Source: Akkermansia sp.
GTDB taxonomy: Bacteria > Verrucomicrobiota > Verrucomicrobiia > Verrucomicrobiales > Akkermansiaceae
Direction of reading: 5' to 3'
Assembly: GCA_045616565.1 (NCBI GenBank)
Contig: JAZLHB010000144.1
Coordinates: 18,216 to 82,215, forward strand
DNA: 64,000 bases
In this document: positions 40,262 to 40,449 of the stretch, in pieces
Layout: the number at the start of each line of letters is the position of its first letter
Numbering within the stretch: the stretch's first letter is position 1
Translations under genes and position numbers: made by a program
The notes under the pieces: generated by a model
What the model was told of the DNA's origin: nothing
What the model saw: only the letters and a program-made list of their open reading frames with translations
Database searches by the model: none

Positions 40262-40449
40262 AAGCATACAGCATTGCCAATACTGTATGCTTGCCTATGG
40301 CCGTGAAGCCTTGTGTCAGCGGGGTTTGCGGCGGGTTGGAGTGGAGCGCGGACGAGGTGGCGGGGAGCGCTCTTGGGCAAAAAAACGCTGGAACGGCAAC
40401 TTTTTTGCAGGATAGAGCTTGACTACAGTATTGGCAAACCTGTACGCTT
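40262..40449. promoter_or_regulatory. candidate invertible promoter element A (26-bp imperfect inverted repeats flanking 136 bp)
   Basis: Left site 40262-40292 is a 10-11-10 palindrome, AAGCATACAG-CATTGCCAATA-CTGTATGCTT. Right site 40424-40449 is TACAGTATTGGCAAACCTGTACGCTT. The shared core TTGCCAATACTGTA is in inverted orientation. TTGACT lies at the inner right border. Confidence 0.5.

Follow-up and report, generated by a model that had tools for sequence, protein, structure and literature searches.

A candidate invertible promoter switch with a mobile -35 and a fixed -10 upstream of an autotransporter gene in an uncultured Akkermansia species

Gene organization of the locus

We have analysed a stretch of 64 kb (hereafter the window; 61% GC) from an uncultured Akkermansia sp., in which three paralogous genes, 30-38% identical to one another and with similar signal peptides, follow each other on the minus strand. 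Gene A (37623..40202) encodes an autotransporter of 859 aa (PF03797, 3.6e-28) with the signal peptide MKRTMFLSMLTAALMGSAYA, and genes B (40777-41751) and C (42117-43112), also on the minus strand, encode PEP-CTERM proteins (PF07589). Element A, the subject of this study, lies upstream of gene A, and a related one, element C (43146..43324), lies 33 nt upstream of gene C, with sites at 43146-43166 and 43304-43324 around an inner segment at 43167-43303, and with a fixed -10 hexamer, TATAAT at 43144-43149 of the minus strand. Gene B has no such element.

To the right of each of the three gene starts there is a copy of the 3′ part of a hypothetical gene (40452-40700, 41798-42040 and 43332-43745), ending in ...HGVEIVSARARE before its stop codon and matching nothing in Pfam or NCBIfam; in the C-side copy the reading frame contains a TAG, at 43398-43400. 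The 3′ end of the PEP-CTERM gene and a small hairpin are repeated alongside (40700-40800 and 42040-42140). The three repeats are ~96% identical, which indicates a recent tandem duplication of a cassette comprising both gene and switch.

A number of other features were noted in the window. At 36602-37501, just past the end of the autotransporter gene and on the other strand, lies a gene for a PEP-CTERM protein that matches the Mac-1 (IdeS-like cysteine protease) domain, and a second autotransporter gene (PF03797, 16951-19788) has only 155 bp upstream of it and no site. At the start of the window (3065-7213) an exopolysaccharide-type cluster lies beside tRNA genes, its members including a Wzz/tyrosine-kinase-like gene (4340-6583) and a Poly_export gene (6596-7213). 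The window also contains a MITE-like family with the terminal inverted repeats CACATGTGTCCCAAT and ATTGGGACACATGTG (21184-21779, 44834-45132 and 53425-53439; 5 motif matches against 0.14 expected), in whose 600-bp copy the interior forms a long nested palindrome and whose 300-bp copy has the same two ends. Each full copy lies ~30 nt upstream of one of the window's three best sigma70-like matches (21808-21835, and 45162-45189 before lysS), and ends resembling these repeats adjoin elements in two of the related loci described below, L001 and L017. A search of Rfam over the window returned four tRNAs only and no match at element A, so that an explanation of the element in terms of RNA structure was dropped.

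Anatomy of element A

Element A comprises two inverted sites of 21 bp separated by a short segment. The left, gene-proximal site (40267..40287) reads TACAGCATT-GCC-AATACTGTA and follows the 9-3-9 consensus of the family, the right, distal site (40424..40444) reads TACAGTATT-GGC-AAACCTGTA, and the invertible segment between them (40288..40423) measures 136 bp. The inverted repeat extends beyond the sites and reaches 40449: the sequence at 40262-40287, AAGCATACAGCATTGCCAATACTGTA, and its inverted counterpart at 40424-40449, TACAGTATTGGCAAACCTGTACGCTT, match at 23/26 positions (88%), these 26-nt arms being 136 nt apart and 60 nt upstream of the ATG at 40202. A -10 hexamer, TATGCT (40263..40268, minus strand), is formed by the outer arm and the flank of the proximal site and is thus fixed with respect to the gene. 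At the other end, the movable segment carries on the plus strand what we refer to as the promoter-end block (40379..40423), in which A/T tracts (AAAAACGCTGGAACGGCAACTTTTTTGCAGGAT) are followed by the -35 TTGAC at 40419-40423. In the present orientation this block points away from gene A.

An earlier note, made from the sequence of the stretch, had proposed that the left site is a perfect palindrome of 10-11-10 layout, that the right site is the same sequence inverted and that TTGACT sits at the inner right border. Indeed, 40262-40292 is a 31-bp palindrome, AAGCATACAG-CATTGCCAATA-CTGTATGCTT, with perfect 10-nt arms, the right site is its inverted copy to the extent given above, and TTGACT is read directly at 40419-40424. 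The 10-11-10 reading stands only in part: the palindrome is exact, but the unit conserved throughout the family is the 21-bp 9-3-9 site (40267-40287, 40424-40444), and the extra AAGCA/TGCTT symmetry is found only in the left site of A and in that of its orthologue L006. In element A, each site departs from the consensus at two arm positions.

The 64 kb contain exactly four copies of the site core, TTGCCAATACTGTA (40274+, 40424-, 43153+ and 43304-), which form two inverted pairs, one in each element. When up to 2 mismatches are allowed, the search gives 5 matches, against 0.24 expected, and none of 100 shuffled sequences reaches 5; given this and the four-fold occurrence of the core, the site repeats at 40262-40449 are real rather than due to chance. 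The possibility that the core is a common operator, present as single copies in front of unrelated genes, does not hold within the window, all four copies belonging to inverted pairs.

It had also been claimed that the inner segment of A is homologous to that of C but diverged, and that the sites have been better conserved, as selection on recombination sites would produce. The homology is evident, with 71% identity in the inner segment and 86% and 100% in the left and right sites. As for the conservation of the sites, the left one is a clean conserved island (86%, between 42% in the 5′ UTR and 64% at the inner edge), whereas the perfect identity of the right one is confounded, since it is continuous with the 96%-identical, recently duplicated block on its right.

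A family of paired sites with co-varying centres

A fuzzy search of the window and 20 related loci defines the family site as 21 bp with two 9-bp arms, TACAGTATT-NNN-AATACTGTA. In the 195 kb of window and related loci we count 31 sites, against 0-1 in shuffled sequences. They are nearly always paired, at 139-171 bp from start to start (most at 155-158), and the pairs stand directly upstream of paralogous genes for surface proteins with signal peptides. The half-site consensus is TACAGTATT, with nearly invariant arms, whose positions 8-9 are TT in 48/48 half-sites. When nine elements are aligned, conservation is seen in the sites, in a block reading GCGGGGTTTGCGGC and in the promoter-end block, AAAAACGCTtGAACGGCAAtTTTTTGCnnGATTgGGCTTGACC, and the middle of the segment is variable.

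The central triplet varies by locus (GCC, CGC, CCA or CCC) and is the reverse complement of that of the partner site in 10/11 tabulated pairs, as well as in L017, L019 and L020. Element A conforms to this rule, the distal GGC being the reverse complement of the proximal GCC, and the sites of element C have the GCC centre as well. As the triplet is asymmetric, partner sites are in inverted orientation; the notion of palindromic arms around an asymmetric centre applies to the whole family, with the addition that the centre co-varies between partners. A crossover region should show such a pattern, any sequence being admissible there as long as the partners match. In the L002 pair the centres differ (GCC vs CCC), and this pair may be locked.

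The related loci were drawn from several sources. In a collection containing one genome per prokaryotic species, a scan with a pattern matching all four window sites gave six contigs, 6/6 from Akkermansia sp. MAGs. Scanning of the JGI metagenomes with a degenerate site pattern gave 0 matches, and a second, protein-based JGI scan gave four loci only, among them L008 and L011; further related loci come from ENA and Logan entries. Contig look-ups by exact protein returned no record for the window proteins A, B and C or for the NCBI-only homologues P0001-P0003, and the P0014 loci (L012-L014) have neither the sites nor an alternative class of repeat. A link to phages was considered and rejected, as the scan of viral contigs for a perfect site gave one chance match, in a contig of 34% GC. 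The species that carry the element are uncultured, and their assemblies come from animal and human guts.

Two of the related loci have three sites each. In L004 (1575-2090) two divergent signal-peptide genes enclose the sites at 1670 (GGC), 1827 (GCC) and 1981 (GCC), in a locus that abuts a prophage portal gene (PF12236). The -35-like end is at present turned towards gene 1, giving TTGCTA-17-TATACT (9/12), and in-silico inversion between sites 1 and 3 directs it to gene 2, giving TTGCTA-17-TACACT (8/12), so that the locus may be a toggle between the two genes. In L011 (34-386), on a contig that begins 33 nt before the first site, the centres are CCA, TGG and CCA, and -35-like ends converge on the middle site from both sides.

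Orientation of the segment at homologous loci

The earlier note had regarded element A as one of two paralogous invertible switches, a proposal that has been strengthened by the comparison of homologous elements, which occur in both orientations between the same flanks. We have compared L003, L002 and L020, in which the segment homologous to 40288..40423 is flipped, with elements A and C of the window (winA and winC), L001, L006, L017 and L019. The Akkermansia MAG locus L003 has the same left flank (the gene start) and the same right flank (the end of the hypothetical gene) as the window elements, but its inner segment aligns to those of A and C only when reversed (74% over 177 nt), the flanks aligning the other way. 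L002 is oriented like L003, and winA, winC, L001, L006, L017 and L019 have the opposite orientation. L006 is the orthologue of the upstream region of gene A, and both are seen only in what is assigned below as the OFF orientation.

The closest comparison is given by L019 and L020, from two ENA assemblies of one study. Their downstream genes (1080/1080) and proximal flanks (73/73) are identical, and the inner segments are identical at 134/137 positions only when one of them is flipped, against 77/137 unflipped. Furthermore, L020, a contig of 1.9 kb, opens with 73 nt that repeat its own proximal flank exactly in reverse complement, meaning that the gene-side flank is joined to both ends of the segment and that ON and OFF junctions are present on a single contig. 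The simplest reading is that both junctions were present in the reads of the sample, although a true inverted duplication, instead of a mixed population, could in principle give the same contig. Both sites of L020 bear the proximal-type outer arm AATACTATA, which fits a crossover at the centre of the site and not fold-back priming from the distal site. Three independent contigs (L005, L016 and L018) also start at or inside a site.

These observations also bear on the possibility that element A is a 188-bp non-autonomous transposable element of the MITE type, with terminal inverted repeats, which has been inserted either way upstream of several genes. Such an element would likewise be short, non-coding, multi-copy and flanked by inverted repeats, and a genuine MITE-like family is present in the same window. 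Nevertheless, there are no target-site duplications, the AAGCA and CGCTT flanks being part of the inverted repeat, and the position of the element is fixed relative to the starts of the paralogous genes, to which its outer arm supplies the -10. Re-insertion would also not give the base-identical junctions shared by L019 and L020 in opposite orientations, and the three-site arrays between divergent genes (L004, L011) speak against it as well, making this explanation extremely unlikely.

Predicted assembly of a promoter by inversion

Inversion of the segment had been proposed to create a promoter directed at gene A. In-silico inversion of element A indeed gives TTGACT-18-TATGCT towards the ATG at 40202, with the -10 at 40263-40268 of the minus strand, 60 nt before the ATG. 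This match is only 9/12, below the 11/12 of C and the relatives, which have TATAAT at the place equivalent to the TATGCT of A. The ON orientation otherwise reads TTGACC-17-TATAAT (11/12), natively in L002, L003 and L020 and, with a crossover at the centre of the site, after in-silico flipping of winC or L001. In this state the six terminal bases of the movable segment make up the -35, the recombination site itself fills the 17-bp spacer, and the -10 consists of the last four bases of the outer arm plus two bases of the flank. In other words, a mobile -35 at the segment's edge is brought to 17 bp from a fixed -10, and the recombination site becomes the promoter spacer. The distal outer arms (AAACCTGTA) contain no -10, so that the switch is one-sided. 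In the present orientation, assigned as OFF, the same rules give no match towards the gene near the proximal site. Judging from these consensus matches, both elements of the window would now be OFF, and the idea of an invertible promoter switch, now OFF, whose inversion assembles a promoter for gene A finds its support at the level of the family.

The paralogue B provides an internal control: it has no recombination sites and carries the equivalent promoter hard-wired, as GGCTTGACC-17-TATAAT (TTGACC-17-TATAAT, 41773..41801, minus strand), which at 11/12 is the best match in the 3.8 kb from 40100 to 43900. The -35 of this promoter shares bases with the stop codon that closes the repeated gene fragment upstream of it. 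Its spacer, unrelated to the recombination site, is also palindromic, TCTCTA-ACC-TAGAGA, and was considered as a second site family, which was rejected, the spacer being unique in the window. Matches to the sigma70 consensus at >=11/12 number three in the window, against 0.17 expected, and 3/3 are intergenic, the promoter of B among them; at >=10/12 there are nine, with 7/9 intergenic, several of these lying immediately upstream of gene starts or of a tRNA gene (17 nt upstream in the latter case). Consensus matches of this type thus mark real gene starts in the source organism. A further match towards gene A in the present orientation, TTGCCA-17-TATCCT (9/12, from 40437 to 40409, minus strand), takes its -35 from the centre of the distal site, is not kept in C or L006 and is probably fortuitous.

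Solo sites are also found as the spacers of intact promoters. In L008 (2400-2505) TTGACC-17-TATAAT precedes a PEP-CTERM-family gene, with the last 23 nt of the upstream promoter-end block retained ahead of the site, and in L007 (8225-8335; L007:8229) TTGCTA-17-TAGAAT precedes an autotransporter gene. L008 has no partner site and is thereby locked ON, and both loci look like locked-ON derivatives of the switch. L007, a distant relative of 55% GC, also has a pair of sites (5804-5979), for which a split promoter recognized by eye was not confirmed. Instead, a complete promoter, TTGGCA-18-TAAAAT (10/12), lies inside the segment and now points away from a PEP-CTERM gene, so that the split-promoter design is not universal in the family.

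The location of a near-perfect palindrome exactly in the promoter spacer could also be understood if a dimeric transcription factor bound it between the -35 and the -10, the second copy 160 bp upstream serving as an auxiliary operator for looping. A protein bound at the spacer palindrome would repress transcription, and the solo copies in intact promoters (L008, L007:8229 and L015) would suit such a role. Yet this explanation is contradicted by the polymorphism in orientation, the segment lying one way round in L019 and the other in L020 although the flanks are identical, and likewise in L003 against the rest. Nor does it account for the facts that in half the cases the -35 is 160 bp away and faces the wrong direction, and that an asymmetric centre co-varies between inverted partners. 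We thus consider it very unlikely as an alternative to inversion; that the recombinase may additionally act as a repressor is an extension of the invertible switch and not a rival to it.

Candidate recombinases

The only recombinase gene in the window, in a Pfam analysis of all predicted ORFs, encodes a XerC/XerD-like tyrosine recombinase of 304 aa (52127..53041, plus strand; PF00589 and PF02899), 9-12 kb from the elements. Its score against the NCBIfam XerD equivalog (304 bits) is below the cutoff of 329.6, and it matches the PDB structure of XerD (1a0p) at 6e-56. It is a weak candidate for the invertase, being more likely a housekeeping Xer protein (XerD). Apart from this gene, the Pfam search for a nearby invertase found no recombinase domain among the predicted ORFs of the window, including no serine recombinase (PF00239), and among the ORFs and precomputed gene annotations examined in the related loci no recombinase lies beside an element. 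As no recombinase adjoins the elements, we infer an enzyme that acts in trans on many sites, as with Mpi in Bacteroides. The odd-length centre, the lack of a resolvase-type gene and the lack of a kb-sized segment argue against a system of the Hin type and mildly favour a recombinase of the tyrosine class.

The absence of a dedicated invertase from the 64 kb raises the question of whether element A descends from an active switch but is now frozen OFF, its recombinase being absent or its own sites and promoter having decayed. The two arm mismatches in each of its sites, the -10 TATGCT instead of TATAAT, the fact that A and its orthologue L006 are seen only OFF and the existence of locked derivatives in the family (the solo sites L008 and L007:8229, the mismatched centres of L002) are all compatible with this. 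On the other hand, the centres of A still match (GCC/GGC), the 14-bp core is perfect in all four window sites and the left site is a conserved island between far more diverged flanks. Moreover, where an inverton family has many loci, its invertase is commonly encoded at a distance and acts in trans, as Mpi of B. fragilis does. We thus regard a frozen element as unlikely.

Proposed mechanism and implications

Taken together, it is likely that element A is an invertible promoter switch (inverton) that mediates phase variation of the autotransporter gene, a reading that draws on the observed anatomy of the element, its conservation across the family, the two orientations at homologous loci and the promoter assembled in silico. 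Two inverted 21-bp sites would flank a 136-bp segment that carries an A/T-rich upstream block and a -35 at one edge, and the -10, lying in the flank and outer arm of the site nearest the gene, would stay put. A recombinase encoded elsewhere, probably of the tyrosine class and serving many such sites in trans, would exchange strands within the centres of both sites. Inversion would then place the -35 at 17-18 bp from the fixed -10, the site becoming the spacer, and the gene would be transcribed; in the opposite orientation, the -35 would face the distal site, whose outer arm has no -10, and the gene would be silent. The activity of the promoter and switching in the source strain are inferred, and so are the identity and the class of the recombinase.

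More tentatively, and with a probability that we place somewhat short of even, the elements may represent a distinct class of Akkermansia inverton, in which the site is the spacer, the -35 is mobile, the -10 is fixed and the triplet acts as the address of the locus, confining a single trans-acting recombinase to matching partners. Inversion would then carry the -35 and its A/T block to the -10 instead of reversing an entire promoter. If this reading of the triplet is true, toggles with several sites between divergent genes (as in L004 and L011) could operate without scrambling of the chromosome.

Prominent among gut symbionts and a candidate probiotic, Akkermansia has numerous invertons, which are mechanistically uncharacterised. 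With the present elements, uncultured species of the genus that are associated with animals would join those in which autotransporter and PEP-CTERM surface proteins are phase-variable, and the analysis gives a precisely defined 21-bp site and a clean promoter model, with natural controls in the hard-wired paralogue and the locked solo sites. The invertase, the rule of matching between partner centres and the ON/OFF expression of the surface proteins are thereby made accessible to experiment. It also carries a warning for annotation, in that such sites are points at which the contigs of these genomes break or fold back.

Comparison with known systems

A counterpart of element A is fimS, the type 1 fimbrial switch of E. 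coli, inverted by FimB and FimE, in which a promoter-carrying segment between short inverted repeats likewise turns a surface structure ON or OFF. Inversion of fimS is catalysed by tyrosine recombinases; the segment measures 314 bp, has 9-bp repeats and contains the whole promoter, and the recombinase genes are adjacent. Element A differs in that its -10 lies outside the segment, its site serves as spacer and no recombinase is adjacent.

With respect to the site, Cre/lox and FLP/FRT also have two inverted arms and an asymmetric centre that gives direction and must match between partners, to the extent that lox spacer variants with different centres make orthogonal pairs. The 9-3-9 arms and the co-varying, partner-matched triplets found here resemble this organization of tyrosine-recombinase sites. 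The dimensions are, however, different, 13-8-13 in lox and FRT, and an overlap of 6-8 bp in sites of the lox/FRT/dif type generally, against 9-bp arms and 3 variable central bases here, the latter lying inside a 7-bp TT-NNN-AA with invariant flanks. By comparison, the serine systems of the Hin/Gin type have 26-bp sites with a 2-bp core, an invertase gene, an enhancer and a segment of kb size, whereas the segment studied here is non-coding and of 136 bp, the centre is of odd length and no resolvase/invertase domain was found in the predicted ORFs of the window.

The assembly of a promoter at a recombination joint is also known from circles of IS elements, at whose junction a -35 in one end and a -10 in the other form a promoter. 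As in element A, the joint brings the two hexamers together, but such junctions are linked to transposition and transient, and do not constitute a reversible inversion that controls a host gene. In the literature searched on split-promoter inversion switches and on an inverton recombinase of the Verrucomicrobiota nothing relevant was found, and in the searchable literature the TACAGTATT site was not found in connection with Akkermansia.

As regards the mode of action, a parallel is offered by Mpi, through which B. fragilis, a gut symbiont, controls the promoters of its surface polysaccharides. Mpi is a serine recombinase and differs from the system considered here in that its promoters are wholly internal to the segments and its repeat is unrelated to that of element A. 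Like the enzyme proposed here, Mpi is a single invertase that acts in trans on many dispersed promoter invertons sharing a repeat motif (cited in PMC13343947).

The nearest relatives are the invertons of A. muciniphila, which are well documented: both orientations have been shown experimentally (PMC11892184, PMC13343947), and many loci share one repeat motif, with no invertase next to each of them. It is further reported that in A. muciniphila ATCC BAA-835 one repeat group, inverton group 138, comprises 32 invertons and is enriched beside PEP-CTERM proteins (PMC11892184), that a group 138 inverton beside two autotransporter genes drifts in orientation across mouse generations (PMC11892184), that in one example, beside two autotransporter genes, the repeats are of 17 bp and are separated by 157 bp (PMC11892184), and that the cps1 inverton controls the capsule (PMC13343947). 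Element A shares with these invertons the genus and the short intergenic segment, of ~150-190 bp, and elements A and C share with group 138 the position next to PEP-CTERM or autotransporter genes (here PF07589 and PF03797). The host is different, an uncultured Akkermansia sp. of 61% GC against A. muciniphila, and so is the repeat: the A. muciniphila motif, in the form in which it is quoted, is CGGATT..AATCCG (PhaseFinder, Jiang et al. 2019), against TACAGTATT-NNN-AATACTGTA here. At <=1 mismatch the quoted motif has 0 occurrences in the window and is found at no element of the related loci, where single near-matches are scattered elsewhere. The comparison of sequences therefore points to a device of the same kind, in the same genus and beside the same classes of genes as those published, which would operate through a site that differs from the quoted motif.
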